Positions 1,260-63,902 of a stretch of DNA of 64,000 nucleotides are shown here, in pieces. Location of the stretch: NCBI GenBank assembly GCA_027262695.1, contig GCA_027262695.1_4722.1; one strand, given 5' to 3'. The notes under the pieces are model-generated. The model saw only the letters and a list, made by a program, of their open reading frames with translations, made no database searches and had not been told where the DNA came from. This DNA is from a phage. The position numbers and the translations under genes are program-made. Within the stretch, counting starts at the first letter, position 1. The number at the start of each line of letters is the position of its first letter.

Positions 1260-1895
1260 TTACGCGAAGCGACGCATGTAACCTGCCAGGTAACCGCGGG
1301 TATCGAAGTAGGCGATTTCTGGAATGGCGATGTTAAGGTCGATAGCACGGATTTCAACCTGGCGACGGCTTTCATCATAGATCGCATCCATCAGACGCAG
1401 TACTGTCAGGAAAGCCATGCGGGTATGGTAATCCAGCGGCATGTTGTCGATACCGCGATACAGATAGCGGTTGGCATTAAACGCCCCTTCGCTGTTTTCT
1501 TTCCAAATCTTCAGCACGTCTGCAAAGGCTGTACGGAAGACTTCTGGATTATCAACATCCAGCAATGCGCGGAAAGCAGACATTAAAGAACGCTGATGGC
1601 GGATCAACGATTGCGGTGTCTGGGCCATGGTCGGACCCATTTCTTCCGCGTATTTCTCGAACGGCGCAACCAGAGTTGCAGCACGAGAAGCAACGATAGA
1701 TAACGCCGGTGATTCAACCGCAATCTTTTTCACAGGCTGTTCTTCAACCGCCGGTTTTGGTTGCTCAACGGTTTCAACAACCGGTTCAACAACGTCGGAT
1801 GGCTCTTGTTGTTCCATCACCTCGTCTTCGACAACCGCTTCCTCAGCCGCATTGCCTTGTTTTGCCGCAAAACGTTGGTCTTTATTCTTGGCCAT
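1260..1895 (-). CDS. hypothetical protein with acidic low-complexity N-terminal region
   Basis: 211-aa ORF; GAAAGGAAAG RBS; E/V/P-rich segment (EEAVVEDEVMEQQEPSDVVEPVVETVEQ). Confidence 0.55.
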   Translation of the reverse strand: MAKNKDQRFAAKQGNAAEEAVVEDEVMEQQEPSDVVEPVVETVEQPKPAVEEQPVKKIAVESPALSIVASRAATLVAPFEKYAEEMGPTMAQTPQSLIRHQRSLMSAFRALLDVDNPEVFRTAFADVLKIWKENSEGAFNANRYLYRGIDNMPLDYHTRMAFLTVLRLMDAIYDESRRQVEIRAIDLNIAIPEIAYFDTRGYLAGYMRRFA

Positions 1896-1920: not shown

Positions 1921-3222
1921 TTAACTGATATAGAGTTCGGGATCATAAGGCGCAAGCGAAACGCTGGCGTTATGCATCGCTTTCATCATTGTGTTCATGA
2001 AGACGTTGTTCACGCCGGTAATTTCCGCCCCGATCGCATCCGGGGTTGGAGCCATCGCATTACCGCAACAGGTAGCACAGTATTCCAACGGACCTGCTTT
2101 ACAACGCTGTGGGTCACGTAACTTGATGGTTTGTCCTTCCAGTGAAGCTAACAGCTCTGCATCGATGAGCTTAAGCGCAGCACCATCGATCATGTAACGA
2201 CCTACCAACAACTTGTCTTTGATGTGGTCGCGGTTTACCGTAAACAGAATATGTTCTTGAGTACCACAATCATCCATCGTGATTTTCAGGTTCTGTGTTG
2301 CACGTTGTGATTCTTTAGCGGTTTGTCCTGCTAAAGCGGTTAACGCACCACGCGAGAACGAACCTGCACGTGCGCTGTTGTTATATTCAGCCCAGTGGTC
2401 AACACGCATACCTTCAGCCAGGCTATGCGTAATCACGTTACGTTTACCTGGATCGACGAAGTCAGCTTCAACCCCCATCATGATGTGCGTTTTCTTTCGA
2501 GTATTACCGAAACTCTTGCCGGGGTTAATATAGAACCCTTCTGATTCATCACCCTTAAAGGATTCCTTATCCATTTTGGTTAGCGTGGCTTCGAGTTTGA
2601 TCAGTTCTTCAGGTGTGAATTTACCTTCTTCCTGTAGACGTGCCAGCTCTTTATCACGATAGGCGATAATGTCGTCATCAACTGTTAATGCTTTATCGCT
2701 CATTGATGGAACAATCAAACGATTAATCGCGGTTAACGCACTGATGTTGTTGGTGAATTTCTTCACTTCGCTTGCATACAGCGGACCGATCGGACGTTCA
2801 TTAGGATCGGGAATCCCCTCTTCAGGATCGTCAGCGACACGTGGCGCAATCAACGCTTCCAACGTACCGCTGGTTAACCGTCCTGCTTGATACTCGATCT
2901 GTATCCCAAAAGCGTCATAAAGAACGTACATATTAAACAGCGCTTCACCGAACGTGGTGGTGGTTGTGTTCTTAACCGATGGAAGATCGCCAGGTGCTAA
3001 TTCAAGAGGCTCCCAGAAGTTAAGCAGAGGTTTTGTCGGTTCGGTTTCCCATTGATGTTCTTCACCGTCGATGGTTACGGTAACGATGTTACCTTGACGA
3101 CGAAGTTTTGGTTGATATTTCTCAGCACCGCCTTCAGTAAAAGCGAAAGCATCGTTTATCCATTCAAGATAACGGTAATGTCCCTCACGCAACGCGTAAA
3201 GGAAATAGTCGCGAGGTGTCAT
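1921..3222 (-). CDS. hypothetical protein (possible virion protein)
   Basis: 433-aa ORF tightly packed with flanking minus-strand genes; no recognisable motif. Confidence 0.55.
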   Translation of the reverse strand: MTPRDYFLYALREGHYRYLEWINDAFAFTEGGAEKYQPKLRRQGNIVTVTIDGEEHQWETEPTKPLLNFWEPLELAPGDLPSVKNTTTTTFGEALFNMYVLYDAFGIQIEYQAGRLTSGTLEALIAPRVADDPEEGIPDPNERPIGPLYASEVKKFTNNISALTAINRLIVPSMSDKALTVDDDIIAYRDKELARLQEEGKFTPEELIKLEATLTKMDKESFKGDESEGFYINPGKSFGNTRKKTHIMMGVEADFVDPGKRNVITHSLAEGMRVDHWAEYNNSARAGSFSRGALTALAGQTAKESQRATQNLKITMDDCGTQEHILFTVNRDHIKDKLLVGRYMIDGAALKLIDAELLASLEGQTIKLRDPQRCKAGPLEYCATCCGNAMAPTPDAIGAEITGVNNVFMNTMMKAMHNASVSLAPYDPELYIS

Positions 3223-3233
3223 GTAACAGCTCC

Positions 3234-4112
3234 TTAACCCTGGGCAGGATCGCCGTGACGTGAGACGAATTCGGATAACGCACGTAGCGCTTCTTTTGAT
3301 TCTTCAGCCATCGGGAAGTTTGTCGTAATAAGCTCACGCAAGATAGGAAGGACGGCAGTATCATCGAGATCCGACGCCAGTGCGAACGCGATCAGCTCTT
3401 GCGTGTATTCATACGGTTGTTGTCGTATCGCCGCAAGCTGTCCACGGCATTGCGTCATCAGTAAGTCAAGGGTGACACCAACCGTACCACCTTCTTCGAT
3501 GTATTGCTTAAAGACAGGTGGATACATACCATCCAAAACACGAATACGTCGACGGATGTTTTCAGGAATATGGACGTTTTCCTCATCGGTAAGATTCTCG
3601 CTGTCTTTCTCCAGCTTCTTGGTTAATACTTGCTGAATGCGTGGAAGCAAGCTGGAGTGCACGAAACCGATAAGCTGTATCACGTTTGTGGTGCCGGTGC
3701 CGTAAATATGACGTGCGCATTCGGCCAGCGCTTCAGATGCGGTGTAATCTTCATCTTCAACGATCGCCAACAGTAACGCGGTATCATCATGGGTTTCAAG
3801 GTCCAGCAACGTGGATGCCAACGCATGAAGATATTTCAAGCTGTCTAATGATAAATGCCCTTCGTTCACCCGAATACCAAAGGCCAGCAATTGCTGTTTG
3901 TAAAGTTCGATGCAACCGTTGGTTAAAATGATGTCTAACTCATTTAGGTCGTATTGTTCATCAGCACCGGATAACATCGTATTGCAGAATGTTTCCAGTT
4001 GTTCACATTTAAAATCTTGGTAAAGACGATGCATGCAGTGCTGTAACAGTGTGTGCCTTGTTTCAGGGATTTTACCTTCTAACAAGGCCAAGACGGAATC
4101 AATCATATCCAC
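3234..4112 (-). CDS. hypothetical protein
   Basis: 292-aa ORF; first gene of the leftward unit after the divergent region 4113-4202. Confidence 0.5.
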   Translation of the reverse strand: MDMIDSVLALLEGKIPETRHTLLQHCMHRLYQDFKCEQLETFCNTMLSGADEQYDLNELDIILTNGCIELYKQQLLAFGIRVNEGHLSLDSLKYLHALASTLLDLETHDDTALLLAIVEDEDYTASEALAECARHIYGTGTTNVIQLIGFVHSSLLPRIQQVLTKKLEKDSENLTDEENVHIPENIRRRIRVLDGMYPPVFKQYIEEGGTVGVTLDLLMTQCRGQLAAIRQQPYEYTQELIAFALASDLDDTAVLPILRELITTNFPMAEESKEALRALSEFVSRHGDPAQG

Positions 4113-4202
4113 TCCGGTGCGGTAAATGTCTACTAGCTCTCATAATCTATTGAAGAAACTACCGGCTGACGCCAACTGAGATTAATTAGGAGTAACCATC
4201 CC

Positions 4203-4676
4203 ATGCCAGTTTCATCCAAACCAAGAAAGAAATCCACAGCAAAACCGAAAGCTCAAGAAACAACAGCAATTCGTTGGGACGAGTTACGCGAACCTATCGA
4301 GAATTGCGAATTGTTGCTGAGTACCTTAGGCGCAGCGATCTATCAAGCCACGCAACCTTGCCGTTTACGATTAACCCAAAACAAACGTGATGAGTTCGTT
4401 GCGTTATCAACCAGCACGAATAAAGATCTAACGGAATTACAAACAGAACTGACGACGATCAAGAACTCGATCACGCCAATGTACGGTAAAGAAGTGGATG
4501 AACAAAGTATTCTGTTGCAATACAACTACGGGATGTCGTTAATGAACATCCTGGAACGTGCCTCCGATATTTTGCGTCCTGACGTTGCACGCCTAAGTCA
4601 ATTGCGTGTTGAAGGGATGGAAAACCAAATCAGATTCTCTAACAGTGTTAAATCCCAAGGAGCCGCTGAAGCATGA
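4203..4676 (+). CDS. hypothetical protein, basic N-terminus
   Basis: 157-aa ORF; AGGAG RBS 8 nt upstream; stop overlaps next start (ATGA). Confidence 0.55.
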   Translation: MPVSSKPRKKSTAKPKAQETTAIRWDELREPIENCELLLSTLGAAIYQATQPCRLRLTQNKRDEFVALSTSTNKDLTELQTELTTIKNSITPMYGKEVDEQSILLQYNYGMSLMNILERASDILRPDVARLSQLRVEGMENQIRFSNSVKSQGAAEA

Positions 4677-6313
4677 GCGAACAAGAAAAAGAAGCCATTA
4701 AAGATCGGACTGAAGACGTAGCGCGTTCAGAAAGCAATGCTTACGTTTCGTATTCAGAGCCTGTTGGTTCAGAACAAGATCAAGCATCTGAAGCCACGTA
4801 CGAAGAAGCCCCAGCGCATCCACCACTGATTGATTTCTCAAAAGCAACCATACGGTTCCAGTGTGACGATATTCGTCCGAAGAATCCGAAGAAAACGAAA
4901 CGTCAACCGTTGATGTTACCGCTCTATTCACCACGCGTACATACAGCGTTTTATCAGCAGTATATCGCGGATGCGTTGGATACCGTCCAGGACATCATTG
5001 CAAACCGTCAACAACCGACCGAAGAACAATTTGATCGATTCAATAAAGCCGCGATTCAATCGTTCTCTGACGGACAGTATCAGCCGAATGGCGATGCTCA
5101 GGATCGTGCATTAGAACGTAAGGGGAGTCAATGGACGAACGTACCGGTTGACGCTTCCGGCGTTGGACGTGTTATACCGGGTATCCCACAACCGAATCAT
5201 ATCCCCGATGATGTTGAAGCACCGCTGACTGGATCGGACGCGATTTATTTCGCCATTCGTAATACGAAATCAGGTGCTCCGGCTGTGATGCCGTTATGGC
5301 ATAGCGGAATCAAACTGCAATTCAACCCACCATCGAATGAACGCGTTGCGATCATGCATGAGCGTATCGCACGTGATAAAATTCTGGGTGGTCGTGATAG
5401 TGCTGGATTCTTGTTTTCGGCAACGTCGATTATCACCATGAAACACGCGATCGAATTAGCTCTCGAATGCTGTTACATGGCCAACGTTCCGAATCTGGAT
5501 ATTCAGCGTTTAAAAGACATCATCCCCGTTACAGATGTTCCAGCGCTCTTGTTGAACGTGTTGGTGACCATGTACCCCTACGGCTATCCGTACGTACAGA
5601 CCTGTTACCAGAATCCAGATACCTGTGATTACCGTGTTGAAGATATCGTCAGTTTTGCGAAGCTTTATCAAGTTGACAACAGTGCGATTACAAAACGTAT
5701 GCGTCAGATCATGACCGAAGGTCCGGTCATGACGGATGAGCTTTTGCGCGAATACGCGAACGAGCTGGGTGAAACCAATTCCCGTACGTTGGATCTGTCT
5801 GATAACGGTTCGGTGATCATTGAACTTGAAGTCCCGAAAATCTCCCGTCATATCGCCATGGGTGAACGCTGGTTAAGCGATACCTTAGAAGATCTCCGTG
5901 ATATTCTTTCTCGTCCATCGATGACGGAAGAAGAACGTGATCGCGTTATCCGTGAACGTCAGTTCTACAGCTGGATGCGTCAGTACGATGCGTGGATCAA
6001 ATCCATGCATGTGTCAGTAAACGGTACCATGCGTCGTGTAAGCGAAGCAGACACACCGGTCGTATTAGCGCAGTTATCCCGCGACAGCGACTTACGCGAA
6101 CGTTACATTGACGGGTTGATGCAATTCATCGGCGATTCAACCATCGCGCTTGCAGCGATGCCTGCCTGGAAGTGTCCGAAGTGTAACGAGGATATTGCGG
6201 AGAATCTTCGCGATCAGAAATACTACGACTTGATTGCATTGGATGTACCCCAGCTTTTTTTTACCCTAAACTCCGTCCAATCGCTGAGGGAGGGGATGGA
6301 CGCGGTATTCTAA
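4673..6313 (+). CDS. hypothetical protein (546 aa)
   Basis: Long plus-strand ORF translationally coupled to the upstream gene; no confident motif. Confidence 0.6.
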   Translation: MSEQEKEAIKDRTEDVARSESNAYVSYSEPVGSEQDQASEATYEEAPAHPPLIDFSKATIRFQCDDIRPKNPKKTKRQPLMLPLYSPRVHTAFYQQYIADALDTVQDIIANRQQPTEEQFDRFNKAAIQSFSDGQYQPNGDAQDRALERKGSQWTNVPVDASGVGRVIPGIPQPNHIPDDVEAPLTGSDAIYFAIRNTKSGAPAVMPLWHSGIKLQFNPPSNERVAIMHERIARDKILGGRDSAGFLFSATSIITMKHAIELALECCYMANVPNLDIQRLKDIIPVTDVPALLLNVLVTMYPYGYPYVQTCYQNPDTCDYRVEDIVSFAKLYQVDNSAITKRMRQIMTEGPVMTDELLREYANELGETNSRTLDLSDNGSVIIELEVPKISRHIAMGERWLSDTLEDLRDILSRPSMTEEERDRVIRERQFYSWMRQYDAWIKSMHVSVNGTMRRVSEADTPVVLAQLSRDSDLRERYIDGLMQFIGDSTIALAAMPAWKCPKCNEDIAENLRDQKYYDLIALDVPQLFFTLNSVQSLREGMDAVF

Positions 6314-6330
6314 TCGATCCGCGATACGGG

Positions 6331-6735
6331 TTGCATGATGGACAGCTTCTTCGTCAGGACGAGAAGATCTGGCAATTGTTGTTAGCGCGTAAAGGCGATG
6401 GGAGCATGAAGCTGAACATCGAAATGGGTATTGCTTACGATACCATGTTCGGCATGTATGATCGCGTTAGTGATTGGACACCATTGAAATGGGTGGCTCA
6501 GCATCCTGCCGAAGACCCATGGGATCGATTAGGTATTAAACCCCTAATCGAAGACTATGCGCGATTCGGCATCAAGGAGTTCATGACGCTCGACGCGTTT
6601 TTAAAAGCCCCCTATCCCTATGCGCAAACGGTGCTCAAAATCGCACAAGACGAATTACGGAAACGTAGTGCGGTATTGGACGATGATGAGGACAAATTAC
6701 GACGGGAAGAAGAACGTCTACGAAACGGAAGATAA
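6331..6735 (+). CDS. hypothetical protein (start uncertain, non-ATG start in ORF track)
   Basis: 134-aa ORF between the 546-aa gene and the macro-domain gene; first in-frame ATG is at 6406. Confidence 0.3.
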   Translation: MHDGQLLRQDEKIWQLLLARKGDGSMKLNIEMGIAYDTMFGMYDRVSDWTPLKWVAQHPAEDPWDRLGIKPLIEDYARFGIKEFMTLDAFLKAPYPYAQTVLKIAQDELRKRSAVLDDDEDKLRREEERLRNGR

Positions 6736-6736
6736 C

Positions 6737-7246
6737 ATGGCAAGATTTACCAGTTTGATTGGGTTGGATATTTGGGAAACGCCTGCTGATGTTCGGGTTA
6801 TTCCTGTTAACACGGTTGGTGTGATGGGACGTGGTTTAGCTAAACAAGCCGCGGAATGTGTGCCCGGTCTTCTTGAAGCGTACCGTAATCAGTGTCGTGA
6901 TGGATTTAAGGTGGGTGAAGTTGCAACGTATCAAGCTGGGGAAAATGACCATCTCACGTACGTCCTGTTTCCATCGAAAGCGGATTGGCGTGAAAGAACC
7001 CGTCGTGAGTATATCATCGATGGTCTGTTGGCGTTGAAGACCTGGTTATTAGAGACCCAGTTTGAAAGAGACTGCTTCTCATACCGGAATCTTGCCGAAC
7101 CCTTGATTGTTGCTATCCCACCAGTTGGTTCAGGCTGCGGTAATATCGGTTCTGGACAAACCGAAACAATCCAACCACAATGGGTACGCGCACAAATCAA
7201 ACAGTATCTTGCCACCGTGCCAAACGTTCATTTCTACTTGTTCTAA
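6737..7246 (+). CDS. putative macro-domain (ADP-ribose binding/hydrolase-like) protein
   Basis: 170-aa ORF from ATG 6737; VIPVNTVGVMGRGLAKQ glycine-rich loop and later PPVGSGCGN loop resemble macro-domain ADP-ribose binding loops; assignment from motif recall only. Confidence 0.45.
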   Translation: MARFTSLIGLDIWETPADVRVIPVNTVGVMGRGLAKQAAECVPGLLEAYRNQCRDGFKVGEVATYQAGENDHLTYVLFPSKADWRERTRREYIIDGLLALKTWLLETQFERDCFSYRNLAEPLIVAIPPVGSGCGNIGSGQTETIQPQWVRAQIKQYLATVPNVHFYLF

Positions 7247-7262
7247 TGCAAAGGTAACATAA

Positions 7263-7294
7263 CCCTCCTCCTTCCCTTACGGGTTGGAGGAGGG
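7263..7294. promoter_or_regulatory. 32-bp GC-rich stem-loop, exact copy of 53421-53452
   Basis: ccctcctccttcccttacgggttggaggaggg between convergent gene ends. Confidence 0.65.
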
Positions 7295-7311
7295 TATATG
7301 CTGTTATGCTA

Positions 7312-7686
7312 TTAATGTTCGTTCCAGATGGCATCTTCCGGTGGAACAATAGGATCTTTCTTTGGCATTGATGGCACTTCATGGCGATGCTTACGGAACT
7401 GCCTATCAATAACCTCACGAAGCCGGTACGCATCAACCCAGGTTGACTTGTTGAAGAGTTCCAAGGTTACCGTCAATCGTGTTCTCGTCATCGAATAGCT
7501 TTTCTTTGCAATGAGATCGGGATAATTCAGTTGAGCGAACCATGCACGGATTTGTTCTTCCGTAAACGCGATGCTGTAATAACTGAGTTTACCGTCATTG
7601 AAATCATGCGCATGGGTGTAGCGTCCAGCGTAACGCCAGACAAGATGCACATTCAGATCGATCCATGGTGGGGTGGTATCAGCCAT
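7312..7686 (-). CDS. hypothetical protein
   Basis: 124-aa ORF; hairpin 7263-7294 just past its stop. Confidence 0.5.
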   Translation of the reverse strand: MADTTPPWIDLNVHLVWRYAGRYTHAHDFNDGKLSYYSIAFTEEQIRAWFAQLNYPDLIAKKSYSMTRTRLTVTLELFNKSTWVDAYRLREVIDRQFRKHRHEVPSMPKKDPIVPPEDAIWNEH

Positions 7687-8286: not shown

Positions 8287-10899
8287 TTAAGCGTCCGGCG
8301 TAAAATCAAAAGGAATGTCCGTACGAATGATATCATAACGTTTTCCGAGGAAATAAAACTCTTCGGGAACCTGGCCTGGAATGATGCTATCACCGATGAA
8401 CTGCGGATACGCCCAGATGTACTGAGTGAGTCCTTCGAACATATCCAGGTTATTTGCGTGGTTACCCATGATACGTTTCCAGAGTTCGCGTTTATACGGT
8501 GTTTTAACATCGAATCCATAAAGCGGTGCAAGATCTTCACCAGGCACAAATCCCAGGTAGTAATGGATCTGACTGACCGGGAAACCAAGCGTGTCTCGCG
8601 GAATGGTGATCGCTTGCTCAGCTTTGGTGACATGCGTTTCAATAATCCAGTCATAACACTCCGAATAGAACCGATCGAATTTCTCTGGATTATACCACGC
8701 TTTGGGAAGGTTGAGTTTCTCCGTGAACGCATTCGACATGATCGTCGGCAAGAACGGAAGAACGCCGGTTTTGATCTGCGTGTATTTCGATTTTACTCGG
8801 TTAACCAGATTCCAGCAACTGTATCCTAACTGTTCGTTACAAAACTCAACGTAGAGATCGTAGTCGCCACCGGATAACGGGTTGTTAATATCACCGATGT
8901 CTGCGGCATATTTGTCAGGATATTGGTTATTGAAAGCCAGTTTGGTTTGGTAGTCGTAGATACACGGTTTGTTGTTCGCCGTGTTGATCCACCACCAGGG
9001 TTCACCTACTTGTACACAAATGTCCTGGACATGAGGATAGATGATATCAGCAAATGCTGTTAACACATCCCCTAACCACGCCATCGCATATTGGTTACAC
9101 GGAGACAGCAACCAAGACGGCGGCGTGTATCCGGTTGCTGCGATATTCCCTTCCCAATCTTGCTGTGCCCACTCGAACGGACACGCTGTACTCATCAATT
9201 CGTAACTTAAACTGATGGTTACAGAGAAATGGTGTTTTGCAGCGAGTGCGGCGAAAGCTTCATGCCATGCAATACAGGGCGGATTTAATACATCCGTGGT
9301 GTTCACCAGTAGCTTACCCGCACTCGGCGTCCAGACGGTGTCGTAGAAATGCGACATTCCAACATAGTGTACTAATTCATCCTGATATCCCGCATACACC
9401 AGGTTCTCGAACACGCGTTCTGGCGTGATGTTATAATGGTCATCATAAGCGGTTATCGCACGAAGTTCGTGTGGTGCGCAGTGGTGACGATTAACGGTCA
9501 TTTCCTGATACACCCCATCGATAGGAAGAATCTCGATGGTTAAACCGAGGTCGATCGGTGTTTCCAGATAGGTCGTTTCAGTCGCATCTTCCTTATAATG
9601 TCGAGAACTCATGCTGAACATCAACGACGTTACCGATTCAAGTTCGATGGGCTCGTCAGCATAGAACCCCGCCATTGCGTCATTAAAATCGATCGTCACG
9701 GTCGCGCTTGTACCGTCTTCGGAGACGTCGGTCGCATATCGGGTTAATGAGATATACTGACGGCTATCGTCTTTGTGTACGACGGTTAAAACCGGCGGGT
9801 TTTCGGTATCCGCAAAGTTACGCTGATCGCCGGTAAACGTGACCTTTGCTTTAAAGATCAAACCGAGTAACGACGTCATGGGATCATACGCGATACAACC
9901 GTGATCCAGCGTATCCGTTGTCCGCCATTCTACCCCGACCAACCCGTTAGCGGTATGACATCGCATATACGCGTTAAGAACCATGTCTTCACTGACGACC
10001 GCGAAGTTCTCTGTTGATTGACCGTTGATAATCCAATACATCGGTTGCCAAAGATTGCGAGTACCTTTTGCATAGCGGTAGGTTGGTGTACCTTTGGGGT
10101 TGCCATTATTAAGATGAAATACGGCAGTACCTTGATAATGGTCGTTCGTATTAATCGGAACGCTATAAGCATCACCGAGATCCGTACGTTCCACTTTTGT
10201 AATAGCGGCATTCTCAAACAACCCACGTAGCGCTGGTAAACCGATATCTGCAGGTGCGTTTTCACGACGTATCGCATCGGCAATACGATGAGCTAAGGCT
10301 GGGTAAATGACTTCACCTTGTTGCAGGTTCGCAAGCCCCGCAAAGCGATCGGGATCGATACCGGCAATTAACAACTCGATATCACCTTTCGTTCTATCGT
10401 CGTGAAGATATTTCAGTCCGGTAAGGTCGAGATGTTGAATAAGCGATAGCAGGTTGTATTTACGGTTTTCGACGGTTAGTTCGAGATCGCCTGCCCAGAC
10501 CAGACTTTCGTCATCGGCTGTTAAAGTAACGGTTTGTCGACCTGTGGTAGATGTCGTCGTTATCTTATTTAATTGCTCTTGCAGGAAGTCTGTTGCAAGG
10601 TCAAAGGCAACGCCGTAGCGATCGGCGACCGTTTGCATGATTTCACGTAACTGGGTATCTTCTTCAATGATAACCTTGATAGGTATTCCCAAGAAAGCTT
10701 TAGCGAGGTCCCGTTTAACCATCGAGACAAATACGGATTTGTAATATCGGCTTCCATCTTTCCCTTTAAAAAGAATGGAGGTTGTTTCGGGTGACGATAG
10801 AACACGTGCAAATTCAACATCGTCGAAGGTAAGAGAAAGTCCGTTTTTCTCGTTGGTCAATCTTAGTATTTCATTCTGCGCGGTTTCATGTAACTTCAT
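8287..10899 (-). CDS. tail fibre/tailspike protein with conserved N-terminal attachment domain
   Basis: 870-aa ORF; N-terminal ~150 aa shares motif VKRDLAKAFLGIPIK and ADRYGVAFDLATDFL with three other genes in the locus; AGAGG RBS. Confidence 0.65.
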   Translation of the reverse strand: MKLHETAQNEILRLTNEKNGLSLTFDDVEFARVLSSPETTSILFKGKDGSRYYKSVFVSMVKRDLAKAFLGIPIKVIIEEDTQLREIMQTVADRYGVAFDLATDFLQEQLNKITTTSTTGRQTVTLTADDESLVWAGDLELTVENRKYNLLSLIQHLDLTGLKYLHDDRTKGDIELLIAGIDPDRFAGLANLQQGEVIYPALAHRIADAIRRENAPADIGLPALRGLFENAAITKVERTDLGDAYSVPINTNDHYQGTAVFHLNNGNPKGTPTYRYAKGTRNLWQPMYWIINGQSTENFAVVSEDMVLNAYMRCHTANGLVGVEWRTTDTLDHGCIAYDPMTSLLGLIFKAKVTFTGDQRNFADTENPPVLTVVHKDDSRQYISLTRYATDVSEDGTSATVTIDFNDAMAGFYADEPIELESVTSLMFSMSSRHYKEDATETTYLETPIDLGLTIEILPIDGVYQEMTVNRHHCAPHELRAITAYDDHYNITPERVFENLVYAGYQDELVHYVGMSHFYDTVWTPSAGKLLVNTTDVLNPPCIAWHEAFAALAAKHHFSVTISLSYELMSTACPFEWAQQDWEGNIAATGYTPPSWLLSPCNQYAMAWLGDVLTAFADIIYPHVQDICVQVGEPWWWINTANNKPCIYDYQTKLAFNNQYPDKYAADIGDINNPLSGGDYDLYVEFCNEQLGYSCWNLVNRVKSKYTQIKTGVLPFLPTIMSNAFTEKLNLPKAWYNPEKFDRFYSECYDWIIETHVTKAEQAITIPRDTLGFPVSQIHYYLGFVPGEDLAPLYGFDVKTPYKRELWKRIMGNHANNLDMFEGLTQYIWAYPQFIGDSIIPGQVPEEFYFLGKRYDIIRTDIPFDFTPDA

Positions 10900-28937: not shown

Positions 28938-29249
28938 TTACTTGTAGAAATGACGTAAAACCGTTGCGATAGGGAACAACCCTGTAACGGTGTTATCACC
29001 CGCGAACATCATGTTCGAACCATTAACCGTGATGAAACGGATATCGGTTACTGAACCATCGATGGCGACAAATCGCATCGAGTTAGGTGGAAGATCTTCA
29101 ATAACATCCTCCAGGTATTCACGGTTTTCAAACGCTTCTTTAACACGACGCATGAAACGAATCAAGGTTCCTTCAGCATCAGCTTCCAAATGGCCTAAGG
29201 TATCACGATTGTTACGAATAGCGAATACAGTCATTTTAAACATATTCAT
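28938..29249 (-). CDS. hypothetical protein
   Basis: 103-aa ORF; conserved upstream motif at 29311-29345. Confidence 0.45.
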   Translation of the reverse strand: MNMFKMTVFAIRNNRDTLGHLEADAEGTLIRFMRRVKEAFENREYLEDVIEDLPPNSMRFVAIDGSVTDIRFITVNGSNMMFAGDNTVTGLFPIATVLRHFYK

Positions 29250-29310
29250 CCTAGCATCCTCTTGTGTTGGATTGATTTCTAAACATCTAGGTGAAGCATA
29301 TTACTGCTTT

Positions 29311-29345
29311 GCTTCACCTTGGTAATATAGCCGTGAAAATTATTG
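29311..29345 (-). promoter_or_regulatory. conserved upstream motif copy 2
   Basis: Plus-strand ggtaatatagccgtgaaaattattgtatt. Confidence 0.45.
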
Positions 29346-61820: not shown

Positions 61821-63902
61821 ATGTTAGATAGAATAAATCGCCTAATGAACCGGATAACGGTTAAAAATCAAAGCAACAATACCGTGCATGTTGGGGGTAT
61901 CGATGCCTGGCGTCTTTCGGACGATATCCAGCGAATCTGGGGTACCTCTCGGTTTATGAAATATATGTTTCGTAACTTCTCTTCCAGCGGTCTTAGCATT
62001 CACAACTTCTATCTGCCTGATTTCGTTTATATTCTTGAAACGATCATTGATGCAAAGAACACCCGCAGCAACAAGCGGATGCTAAAACGCCTTGTTGAAG
62101 TCTTGTTAGAAGAAACCTGGCTGCAAAATACCACCATCGAACAGCCAGCCATTCTTGATAAAGCGCGCATGAAGAAAATGATGACGCTTTCTTTGTTCGA
62201 TTATCAAGATGAGTATCTCGACATTTATAACCGCAACGTTCCGAAATATCGATTAAAAGGCCATGTGTGTGCGATGGGTGCCGGGGCGGGTAAAACAATT
62301 ACCGCGTTGGCGTTAAGCGCTGCCTTGGGTGTTGACGTCTTCGTGGCATGCTGTCCTAAGAACACCATGCGTTCGGCATGGCAATCAGATTTACATAAAG
62401 CGCTTGTGGATCCTGCAACCGAATCCGCATTCTGGTCTGATGTGATGCCCCCAACCCAGTTACAGAAAAGCGATAAATATTACTTCCTGCATTACGAGCA
62501 GATGGGATTGTTAAACGAGATCATGCTCAAGCATAAACGCACAGCAAAACGTGTGTTGATCGTTGTCGATGAAAGCCATAACTTCAACGATAAGAACAGT
62601 CAACGTTCTCAGCGTTTGGTTGATCTGGTACAGACGATGCGTCAAACCATGAATGCGGACATACATGTCTTATTTATGTCGGGTACGCCTGTTAAACAGA
62701 TGGGTTCTGAAATGATCCCATGTTTAGGTTGCATTGACCCGATGTTCCAAGGCCAGGTGGTTGATAGCTTCAAGTCGATTTACGGTTTAACCAGCAGTCG
62801 TGCTAATGATATCTTAAGGCATCGTCTTGGATTCATGATGCATGTCGTACCCAAAGAAGCTTACCGTAAGACACGGCCTGAGGTTCAGGACGTATACGTG
62901 AAACTGCCTAACGGTAGTGATTACACCATCTCAAGTATCCGTGACGATATGGCGGTGTTTGTGCGTGACCGTGCAAAATACTACAAAGATAACTGGGGGC
63001 ATTACCGGAAGATTTTCGATGATGCGCTGGATTTCTATCGTCGGACCATACGGACGGAAGGTGAGCGTAAAGAACTGTCTCGTTATGAATCCATCGTCGC
63101 CCGCTTTCAGAAAGGTTACGATCCTGTCAGGGATAAAGAAGACGCCATGTTCTGCAACGTGTTCGAGAAACGAGCGATCATGCCGATTCTTCCTCCCGAT
63201 TTACGGATTGCGTTCAAAGACGCCAAAAGCGTCATCAAGTACGTCGGATTGAAGATTCAAGGGGAAGCCTTGGCAAGGGTTCTTGGCGCAGCGCGCATTC
63301 AATGCCACGTTGATATGGTCGAGTATATCGATTTTGAAGGGTATATCAACAATGCTGAAGCCAAAGTGCTGATCTTCACGTCATACGTTCAGGTAGTTGA
63401 ACGCGTTGATAACCTGCTTCGCGATGCGGGCTTCTTACCAGAACCGATCTACGGGAAGACCAACAAGAACATTAACCAGATCCTCGCGCGATTACGCGAT
63501 GATCCTGACAGCGGTCCCGCTATCGCAACCTTTGATAGTTTAGCGGAAGGGGTTCCTATGTTAATGTGTAACGTCGGCCTTTTCTTAAATAACCCCTGGC
63601 GTTCCTCCGATGAGATCCAAGCCATCAGTCGTCTCGACCGTGTTGGTCAAACCCAACCTGTTCGTATCTATCGTTTCATGCTGGATACTGGCAGCGAAGG
63701 TAACGTTTCAACACGAAGCCAAGAGATCATGGAGTTAAGTCGTCAGCTGGTTGAAGAAATCACAGGTGTTAAATACAATGTGAATAAACAAGCCGACGTT
63801 AACCTACAAGAAACGCTGGCTATGGAAGGGTACGATAGATACTTGACGATTAATACCCCTGGGTTTGAAATCAAACCGCGTTCCACGTTCTTAGAATGGT
63901 AA
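61821..63902 (+). CDS. SF2 helicase, SNF2-like ATPase
   Basis: Walker A GAGAGKT, DEXH box VVDESHNF, SGTPV, motif VI QAISRLDRVGQ; start set at ATG 61821 after hairpin. Confidence 0.7.
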   Translation: MLDRINRLMNRITVKNQSNNTVHVGGIDAWRLSDDIQRIWGTSRFMKYMFRNFSSSGLSIHNFYLPDFVYILETIIDAKNTRSNKRMLKRLVEVLLEETWLQNTTIEQPAILDKARMKKMMTLSLFDYQDEYLDIYNRNVPKYRLKGHVCAMGAGAGKTITALALSAALGVDVFVACCPKNTMRSAWQSDLHKALVDPATESAFWSDVMPPTQLQKSDKYYFLHYEQMGLLNEIMLKHKRTAKRVLIVVDESHNFNDKNSQRSQRLVDLVQTMRQTMNADIHVLFMSGTPVKQMGSEMIPCLGCIDPMFQGQVVDSFKSIYGLTSSRANDILRHRLGFMMHVVPKEAYRKTRPEVQDVYVKLPNGSDYTISSIRDDMAVFVRDRAKYYKDNWGHYRKIFDDALDFYRRTIRTEGERKELSRYESIVARFQKGYDPVRDKEDAMFCNVFEKRAIMPILPPDLRIAFKDAKSVIKYVGLKIQGEALARVLGAARIQCHVDMVEYIDFEGYINNAEAKVLIFTSYVQVVERVDNLLRDAGFLPEPIYGKTNKNINQILARLRDDPDSGPAIATFDSLAEGVPMLMCNVGLFLNNPWRSSDEIQAISRLDRVGQTQPVRIYRFMLDTGSEGNVSTRSQEIMELSRQLVEEITGVKYNVNKQADVNLQETLAMEGYDRYLTINTPGFEIKPRSTFLEW

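Follow-up and report, generated by a model that had tools for sequence, protein, structure and literature searches.

A four-gene block of a Goslar-like jumbo phage: a probable phiKZ-type operon with a candidate −1 frameshift and an AdfM-like macrodomain gene

Within a 64,000-nucleotide stretch of phage DNA (the window; GenBank assembly GCA_027262695.1, contig GCA_027262695.1_4722.1), four genes at 4203-7246 lie on the plus strand between genes that run leftward. The locus raises the question of what such a block is, and whether it is an accessory anti-defence island, as the initial annotation implied, or a fixed part of the genome. Taking the model as a whole, we are fairly confident that it is a conserved operon of phiKZ-like phages in which genes 2 and 3 form a frameshifted pair and AdfM (anti-DarT factor macro, a family name from Morgan et al., Cell Rep 2026, PMC13309987) stands at the end. 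The gene order, the homologies, the catalytic residues and the comparative recoding signature described below were observed directly in this analysis.

Window positions 4000-7400 match positions 90158-93582 of vB_EcoM_Goslar with 85.7% nucleotide identity over 97% of the length. Goslar is an Escherichia coli nucleus-forming jumbo phage (Chimalliviridae), and all four plus-strand open reading frames (ORFs) of the block are counterparts of its gp080-gp083. The nearest database protein to gene 2 (98% identical) comes from a 180-kb contig in an assembly of Salmonella enterica serovar Panama, which suggests that a Goslar-like phage was carried in, or contaminated, that Salmonella isolate. A further relative lies on a 238-kb metagenome contig.

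The recoding signature at the gene 2/gene 3 junction

Gene 2 (4673-6313, plus strand) belongs to the phiKZ gp77 family (Goslar gp081; phrog_4585, E 7.4e-68) and has a 0-frame product of 546 amino acids (aa). The gene 3 ORF (6331/6406-6735, plus strand), of the phiKZ gp76.4 family (Goslar gp082), is annotated from the ATG at 6406. The initial annotation held that all four genes of the block are translationally coupled. This agrees with the junction of genes 1 and 2, which overlap as ATGA, and with that of genes 3 and 4, which are separated by a single base (TAA-C-ATG). The junction of genes 2 and 3, in contrast, is not one of simple coupling: its sole ATG sits 92 nucleotides (nt) beyond the gene 2 stop, and the TTG at window position 6331 reads TTA in Goslar. 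The gene 3 frame overlaps the end of gene 2; it lies in the −1 frame relative to gene 2, and the open stretch spans 6187-6735. Between the TTG and the ATG (6331-6405), ten of the 15 differences from Goslar hit the third position of a gene 3 codon and none the second. A hairpin in the apparent gap at 6314-6405 was considered and rejected, as it folds no better than shuffles and the gap is coding.

An eight-T run at 6255-6262 near the end of gene 2 contains a candidate −1 slippery heptamer, T_TTT_TTT (6256-6262, plus strand), made up of the last base of the Leu528 codon and the codons of Phe529 and Phe530. The −1 frame extension that begins there (6262-6735, plus strand) comprises 157 codons, the C-terminal part of which is the Goslar gp082/phiKZ gp76.4 family. 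Joined to the first 530 residues of gene 2, it would give a trans-frame product of 687 aa. The predicted junction reads ...LFFYPKLRPIAEGG... in the window, i.e. ...DVPQLFF followed by YPKLRPIAEGGDGRGILIDPRYGLHDGQ..., and ...STFF followed by YFGGLEVKPDGVVNDLRYSR... in phiKZ.

We explored this pattern in 79 evaluable IMG/VR loci and nine genomes (88 in total), and counted the site itself on 89 loci, which form 53 clusters at <50% identity. The downstream ORF was in the −1 frame and open across the gene 2 stop in 79/79 IMG/VR loci and 9/9 genomes. In all 79 IMG/VR loci this frame was open from the T run and continued for 404-620 nt beyond the stop; the +1 frame closed within about 100 nt in most loci. 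The heptamer U_UUU_UUY was present in 81 of the 89 loci (48 of the 53 clusters). The third base of the codon before Phe-Phe was T in 50 of the 53 clusters (background 0.28; binomial p-value 3.5e-24), and these T-ending codons span nine codons and nine amino acids. The first Phe codon was TTT in 51 of the 53 clusters, compared with 39% elsewhere in the gene. The same pattern was found in phiKZ, 201phi2-1, LucasX, RAY and the Bacillus phage AgentSmith. A homopolymer sequencing error cannot account for it.

The most conserved motif of the extension is H-x5-FG (F 95%, G 89%). No ATG, GTG or TTG occurs between the slip site and this motif in 62 of the 89 loci, including Goslar, phiKZ, RAY and the window, and the first canonical start lies 68-151 codons past the slip site, well beyond the motif, in phiKZ, RAY, AgentSmith and the loci L046 and L047. 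Lineages at only 53-56% protein identity have TTTTTTTTACCCTAAACTCC in identical form, and relatives at this distance conserve the −1 frame peptides GRGILIDPRYGL, GRGHIVDPRFGL and QGAIINPGFGL across the gene 2 stop. The −1 frame peptide VVND.RYSRL, upstream of any annotated start, is common to phiKZ and Noxifer. The 0-frame tail of gene 2 (FF.L..QR..., a predicted helix) is also conserved. With the −1 extension and the 0-frame tail both conserved, the 0-frame and trans-frame products both appear to be under selection.

These comparisons are read most simply as a programmed −1 frameshift, by which gene 2 would yield two forms, of 546 aa and 687 aa. Most ribosomes would end gene 2 at 6313 and produce the 546-aa form. 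At Phe529-Phe530, a fraction would slip back by one base on the U_UUU_UUU heptamer (6256-6262) and continue in the −1 frame as far as 6735, which would add the domain now called gene 3 and yield the 687-aa form. On balance, we favour the view that an unannotated programmed −1 frameshift gives two isoforms of a core gene product, that of the phiKZ gp77 family (1225 cluster representatives). In a literature search on frameshifting in phiKZ or the Chimalliviridae, we found no paper on this conserved candidate frameshift, which is apparently unreported.

Programmed −1 frameshifts occur in morphogenesis genes of tailed phages, such as lambda G/GT, P2 E/E+E' (slippery T_TTT_TTG) and T7 10A/10B. The pair described here resembles them in that an X_XXY_YYZ heptamer lies near the end of the upstream ORF, the overlapping −1 ORF adds a C-terminal domain, the arrangement is conserved across very divergent relatives, and each message specifies two isoforms. 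There are also differences. The upstream protein is about 540 aa here and about 90-140 aa in the known cases, and the product here is a predicted one. Unlike lambda G/GT, the pair does not lie between tail-tube and tape-measure genes; its neighbours are a virion RNA polymerase (vRNAP) gene, gp79 and AdfM. In addition, gene 2 has no sequence similarity to the gpG families and matches no chaperone family. The two-isoform logic itself would match phage assembly chaperones such as lambda G/GT.

Several points weigh against a programmed frameshift. The 687-aa product is known from sequence only, as the Goslar virion mass spectrometry searched annotated proteins alone. Binomial p-values such as the one for the wobble T ignore shared ancestry. 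RNA structure downstream of the heptamer was no better than shuffles (z ~ −1.2), and an Rfam scan found no frameshift element. The canonical heptamer is missing from five of the 53 clusters (Noxifer type G_TTT_TTC; TTT_ATT), and some lineages have an ATG, GTG or TTG just before the H-x5-FG motif, where independent initiation may also occur. In Goslar-type sequences, a 7-bp hairpin, CUCCRUC...GAUGGAG, lies 8-9 nt 3' of the heptamer (window 6271-6300; 1809-1830 in locus L008). Its spacing suits a frameshift stimulator, but phiKZ and LucasX are without it and the z-score of the fold is that given above.

Transcriptional slippage could account for the T run in another way. The phage RNA polymerase would stutter on the T7-T8 run and add one U, so that some mRNAs encode the fusion. 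Slippage at homopolymer runs of 7-9 is known from bacterial dnaX and from insertion sequence (IS) elements. Runs of 8-9 T are common among the loci, and no convincing stimulatory RNA structure was found downstream of the heptamer. However, in about one third of the loci the site is only T_TTT_TTC (6-7 T). Such a run is on the short side for slippage by RNA polymerase, yet it is still a correct X_XXY_YYZ site for tRNA re-pairing in the right register. The register of the run with respect to the codons is also conserved, and this matters to ribosomes and not to RNA polymerase. We regard polymerase slippage, which would be a variant of the same recoding, as unlikely, and infer both the occurrence of ribosomal frameshifting in its place and the efficiency of that frameshifting.

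It is slightly less likely still that no recoding takes place at all. Gene 3 would then be a separate gene, started by reinitiation or from a non-canonical codon after the gene 2 stop, and its frame would be constantly −1 because it descends from an ATGA-type overlap. The candidate starts are an AUU at 6307 in the window and an AUA that overlaps the gene 2 stop in L008 and L009. Ten nt before the in-frame ATT at 6307 there is a strong Shine-Dalgarno-like run, GGAGGGG (GGGAGGGG, window 6289-6309). A TTG overlaps the stop in 201phi2-1, and the ATG or GTG codons just before the motif in some lineages could serve in the same manner. The far lower number of peptides from gp082 than from gp081 in the Goslar mass spectrometry fits either model. 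However, a separate gene 3 leaves unexplained the selection for a wobble T before Phe-Phe and for TTT, and also the −1 frame that is open from the T run in 88/88 loci. It does not sit well with the distant first canonical starts of phiKZ, RAY, AgentSmith, L046 and L047, nor with the conservation of peptide upstream of the gene 2 stop, as in the VVND.RYSRL of phiKZ and Noxifer. Non-canonical reinitiation could nevertheless add to frameshifting, or replace it, in the lineage of the window.

We also noted that gene 3 looks mis-annotated in public records (window 6256-6735; L001 8280-8760; L002 6146-6649; L092 3430-3978). The annotation of Goslar gp082 begins at an internal ATG, that of phiKZ gp76.4 takes in no more than the final 80 codons of an open −1 frame 172 codons long, and RAY gp266 is annotated with a 135-nt overlap of gp267. 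All three are better explained as a −1 extension of the upstream gene.

The gene 2 protein and the role of genes 1-3

The AlphaFold2 model of gene 2, built on a 141-sequence alignment, reached a mean predicted local distance difference test (pLDDT) of 84.8 and a predicted template modelling score (pTM) of 0.85. After a disordered stretch of about 40 residues at the N-terminus, the chain forms a mixed alpha/beta body, and the two Cys pairs are placed on separate beta hairpins of this body. The invariant residues of the family are C311, C318, C501, C504, G240, D288, W400 and F529. Gene 2 encodes a Cys4 protein that is probably zinc-binding. Searches against Pfam, NCBIfam, PADLOC and PDB sequences gave nothing significant, a word-indexed homologue search with the close-relative alignment added nothing, and no PDB relative was found by sequence or by structure search.

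Beyond the family of gene 2 itself, Foldseek matched the model in BFVD to proteins of 250-285 aa that carry the name 'Baseplate hub assembly protein, bacteriophage T4-like' (target TM 0.49-0.53, probability 1.00, E 4e-4 to 7e-4). The Pfam family PF12322 holds both T4 gp26 and T4 gp51, and its NCBI name is 'gp26 family baseplate hub assembly chaperone'. PF12322 was the top sub-threshold Pfam match in two of 92 gene 2 relatives (E 0.002 and 0.014), collinear over the C-terminal part; gene 2 of the window gave no match to it above the gathering score. Alignment of the gp77 family with T-even gp26 and gp51 by hhalign and hmmsearch was not significant (hhalign probability 1%), and no solved gp26 or gp51 structure came up in the PDB structure searches with gene 2.

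The likeness extends to the cysteines. T4 gp26 has a two-pair layout like that of gene 2, in which C82, C84 and C190 are invariant and C187 is nearly so. Both proteins have two separated Cys pairs, with the C-terminal CPxC followed by FF..L, and the layout in gp26 reads CxC...CPxC...FF. However, gene 2 is two to three times longer, no baseplate genes lie in its neighbourhood, and the second product of T4 gp26 is annotated as arising by internal initiation and not by frameshifting. Given the non-significant profile-profile comparison, we take the likeness as a lead and not as a sign of membership.

Gene 1 (4203-4676, plus strand; 157 aa) is 96% identical to Goslar gp080 and is the positional equivalent of phiKZ gp78. 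It had no tblastn match besides Goslar gp080 and no family in Pfam and PHROG scans, and its alignment with its positional equivalents is weak.

We tentatively suggest that the most likely role of genes 1-3 is that of a morphogenetic (hub or virion assembly) chaperone, as may be read from the weak gp26/gp51 fold match. The two-isoform logic, a neighbourhood of structural and late genes and the virion marks in the 201phi2-1 record, given below, point in the same direction. The data on virions conflict with one another, and this weighs against a clean picture. Mass spectrometry of Goslar virions gave 24 peptides of gp081, corresponding to about 15-35 copies and similar to the vRNAP subunits, with gp082 weakly detected, whereas the 201phi2-1 record marks gp138/139 as found in virions and does not mark gp135-137. 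Chimallin, PhuZ, ChmC and thymidylate synthase (ThyA) are present in the Goslar virion preparation as well. A further point against is that phiKZ 077/078 are absent among the hits of an antisense oligonucleotide (ASO) knock-down screen. A literature search on PHIKZ077 and Goslar gp81 returned nothing relevant.

Genes 1-3 might instead act on phage DNA or transcription in the phage nucleus, for example as a factor for vRNAP loading or packaging. This seems improbable to us, although it would explain the persistent linkage to AdfM and the vRNAP gene. About half of the lineages carry the macro gene as a neighbour, the divergent partners are the vRNAP gene and gp79, and gp081 at about 22 copies is comparable to the vRNAP subunits at 7-21 in the Goslar preparation. 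However, the fold searches found no nucleic-acid-binding or enzymatic fold, and D288 is the sole invariant acidic residue. The gene 2 protein is not marked as a virion protein in 201phi2-1, and the Goslar preparation includes clear non-virion proteins. The linkage itself may merely mirror shared late timing. A bolder reading of the same facts would be that the recoded pair, AdfM and the vRNAP gene stay linked because they share a function, on phage DNA or in vRNAP packaging, and not because of tail assembly.

The initial annotation saw a weak hint of an ADP-ribosyltransferase (ART) fold in the R...SATS...ELE spacing of the 546-aa protein. This suggestion did not hold. The putative catalytic Glu positions are mostly Asp, Asn or Ala in relatives, the residues sit in helices 222-243 and 246-265 of a confident model, no ART was among the listed fold matches, and Pfam and PADLOC gave no match. 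Gene 2 thus does not show the combination of an invariant ExE Glu and an R/S-x-S motif on the beta strands of an ART fold that characterizes an R-S-E ADP-ribosyltransferase. Likewise, no phage ADP-ribosyltransferase was found in the block as a partner for the macro domain.

The core module and its macrodomain gene

The gene 2 family comprises 153 phage records by tblastn, and the count of cluster representatives given above comes from an exhaustive search. Its members include phiKZ gp77, PhiPA3 gp074, 201phi2-1 gp136 and RAY gp267, and tblastn also found relatives in jumbo phages of Ralstonia, Vibrio, Serratia, Klebsiella, Xanthomonas and Bacillus. In phiKZ, LucasX, Noxifer, 201phi2-1 and RAY, genes 1-3 (phiKZ gp78, gp77 and gp76.4) diverge from gp79 and the vRNAP-subunit genes just as in the window, and the gene 2/3 pair was also found in a Bacillus jumbo phage. 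From these comparisons, genes 1-3 are best described as a core module of phiKZ-like jumbo phages and not as an accessory island. The initial annotation named a core structural module bearing virion-protein annotations in relatives as what would refute it, and this is half borne out: the module is core, and its virion status is ambiguous.

Gene 4 (6737-7246, plus strand; 169 aa; Goslar gp083, phiKZ gp104), which we refer to as adfM, encodes a macrodomain, as the initial annotation had recognized from its glycine-rich loops, and this domain is of the DarG type. The glycine-rich motifs VNTVGVMGRGLA and PPVGSGCGNIG are both present. The best solved relative is the DarG macrodomain of Thermus aquaticus (5M31/5M3E, E 3e-13), followed by that of Mycobacterium tuberculosis DarG (5M3I, E 6e-10); the motifs NTVGVMG and FP(S/T)K..WR align between gene 4 and T. 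aquaticus DarG. The DarG models NF048014 of NCBIfam (E 9.5e-22) and DarG of PADLOC (E 8e-21) were matched, both over the macrodomain part only, and the score against Pfam Macro was just under the cut-off (21.6 bits against 22).

Gene 4 resembles the DarG antitoxin in that its closest solved structures by sequence are those of DarG and that DarG-specific hidden Markov models match it. It differs from the antitoxin in covering only positions 7-146 of a 338-position model, with 77.7 bits against a cut-off of 250, in being without the C-terminal DarT-binding domain, and in having neighbours that are not darT.

Gene 4 is 89% identical to Goslar gp83 (YP_009820768.1) and occupies the syntenic position, and Goslar gp83 is listed as AdfM in the alignment of Fig. 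1B of PMC13309987. The catalytic Asn and Lys named in PMC13309987 correspond in gene 4 to N25 (in VNTVGVMG; T. aquaticus N22, phiKZ N23) and K81 (in FPSKADWR; T. aquaticus K80). Like phiKZ gp104, PhiPA3 gp108 and Goslar gp83, gene 4 is a single macrodomain of about 160-170 aa with these two residues. Its identity to phiKZ gp104 is 32-35%, and both come from nucleus-forming jumbo phages. From orthology and conserved catalytic residues, gene 4 is predicted to be an ADP-ribosyl-DNA glycohydrolase.

The function of this family has been described in PMC13309987. phiKZ gp104 strips the ADP-ribose added by DarT2 from DNA in vitro, neutralises DarT2 toxicity, and is imported into the phage nucleus. 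The tested orthologue PhiPA3 gp108 likewise removes DarT2 ADP-ribose and protects against DarTG2, and on DarTG2 hosts the titre of phiKZ and PhiPA3 deletion mutants falls by 3-6 logs (PMC13309987). In phiKZ and PhiPA3, AdfM enters the phage nucleus and hydrolyses the ADP-ribose that host DarT2 adds to thymidine of single-stranded phage DNA, and this hydrolysis restores phage replication and packaging. The suggestion that the macro domain counters an ADP-ribosylation defence is therefore correct for this gene family, and it is already published. De-ADP-ribosylation of single-stranded DNA, PicA nuclear import and protection against DarTG2 were shown for phiKZ and PhiPA3 only, and for Asesino with respect to localisation alone (PMC13309987). 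To carry this activity over to a Goslar-type protein such as gene 4, or to enterobacterial (E. coli or Salmonella) DarT, would go beyond these cases.

Next, the linkage of adfM to genes 1-3 was evaluated in 80 IMG/VR relatives (L012-L091; 79 evaluable loci). We found an AdfM-like macro gene downstream on the same strand in 41 of the 79 loci (about 5500-6600 in each), and in 37 of these 41 the macro match starts ≤132 nt from the end of gene 3. Here and in about half of the metagenomic relatives, adfM closes the gp78-gp77 operon, whereas in phiKZ it lies about 35 kb away from that operon. By this comparison, the phiKZ layout is the exception, and the usual place of adfM is the 3' end of the operon. 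Since the macro gene adjoins gene 3 in so many loci, the four-gene layout may be taken as widespread and probably ancestral.

We regard it as very improbable, and as already largely refuted, that the block is a mobile anti-defence island of accessory genes, with an ART-like 546-aa enzyme as partner of the macro domain. In favour of this idea, the macro domain itself holds up, 78 of 92 relatives keep R241 and as many keep S249, a fair degree of conservation, and the macro gene is missing from about half of the relatives (also PMC13309987). Against it, genes 1-3 are core genes with fixed synteny, the GC content of the block (0.45-0.49) is like that of its flanks with no composition anomaly evident, and the gene 2 residues, fold and family searches do not fit an ART.

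Borders, neighbouring genes and meaning of the block

The four plus-strand genes, the divergent spacer and the shared hairpin of the initial annotation are all real. Most likely, the block is a single operon that is conserved in phiKZ-like jumbo phages (Chimalliviridae type) and probably expressed late. Transcription would run rightward from the spacer between the divergent genes as far as the hairpin, and the four genes, which are likely to be co-transcribed, would form two functional halves (genes 1-3 and gene 4).

The divergent intergenic region (4113-4202, 90 nt) is 96% identical to that of Goslar, has no stable fold, and presumably carries the operon promoter. A sigma-70 promoter scan found no site in this spacer, which is expected because the phage uses its own RNA polymerases. 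At the other end, the GC-rich hairpin at 7263-7294 is shared by convergent transcription units. Its folding energy is −32 kcal/mol on the plus strand and −34 kcal/mol on the minus strand (z −5.3 and −6.9; 0/200 shuffles as good). It is likely to be a bidirectional terminator, in line with the Goslar terminator annotation. A simple terminator scan did not call the hairpin because it has no clean T tract, and an Rfam scan of 3900-7500 found no family.

On the left, the divergent partner of the operon is a homologue of the phiKZ gp79 head protein (3234-4112, minus strand; phrog_5038, E 7.8e-26), at the position of phiKZ gp79, 201phi2-1 gp138 and RAY gp269. Next to it lies a vRNAP subunit gene (1921-3222, minus strand; Goslar gp078, phiKZ gp80), identified by the Goslar annotation and by phrog_2962, 'RNA polymerase beta subunit' (E 3.5e-106). 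Goslar gp78 is one of five vRNAP subunits (bioRxiv 10.64898/2026.04.21.720040). The gene at 1260-1895 (minus strand) is a homologue of Goslar gp077, a capsid decorator protein in the Goslar cryo-EM structure; therefore, structural genes surround the operon. On the right, 8287-10899 (minus strand) encodes an 870-aa protein (Goslar gp086) whose counterpart on a related contig has DUF7941, NCTSP_N and TIM-barrel_NCTSP domains. DUF7941 proteins make up the 'filament cloud' described on Goslar virions.

Apart from the block, all ORFs of ≥90 aa between 34 and 28860 are on the minus strand, so that the statement of the initial annotation that every other gene in the region is on this strand is true for this part of the window. 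It does not extend to 29011-29325 and 61821-63902, the only further plus-strand ORFs of this size in the 64-kb window. The latter, a 693-aa ORF at the right end of the window, opens another strand switch.

With respect to the biology of these phages, little is gained from the macro gene, since a publication of 2026 already describes AdfM and the protein of the window is a close orthologue; it does add a second Goslar-type phage to the family. More useful, and the most interesting result, is the recoding signal, with which the annotation of a core gene pair in phiKZ-like jumbo-phage genomes would be put right. It also gives a testable handle on the large gp77 family, namely two isoforms in a fixed ratio, like those of assembly chaperones. 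Knock-down, transposon and engineering work on these therapeutic-candidate phages at present takes gene 3 for a small ORF in its own right, and it is for such work that the recoding matters.

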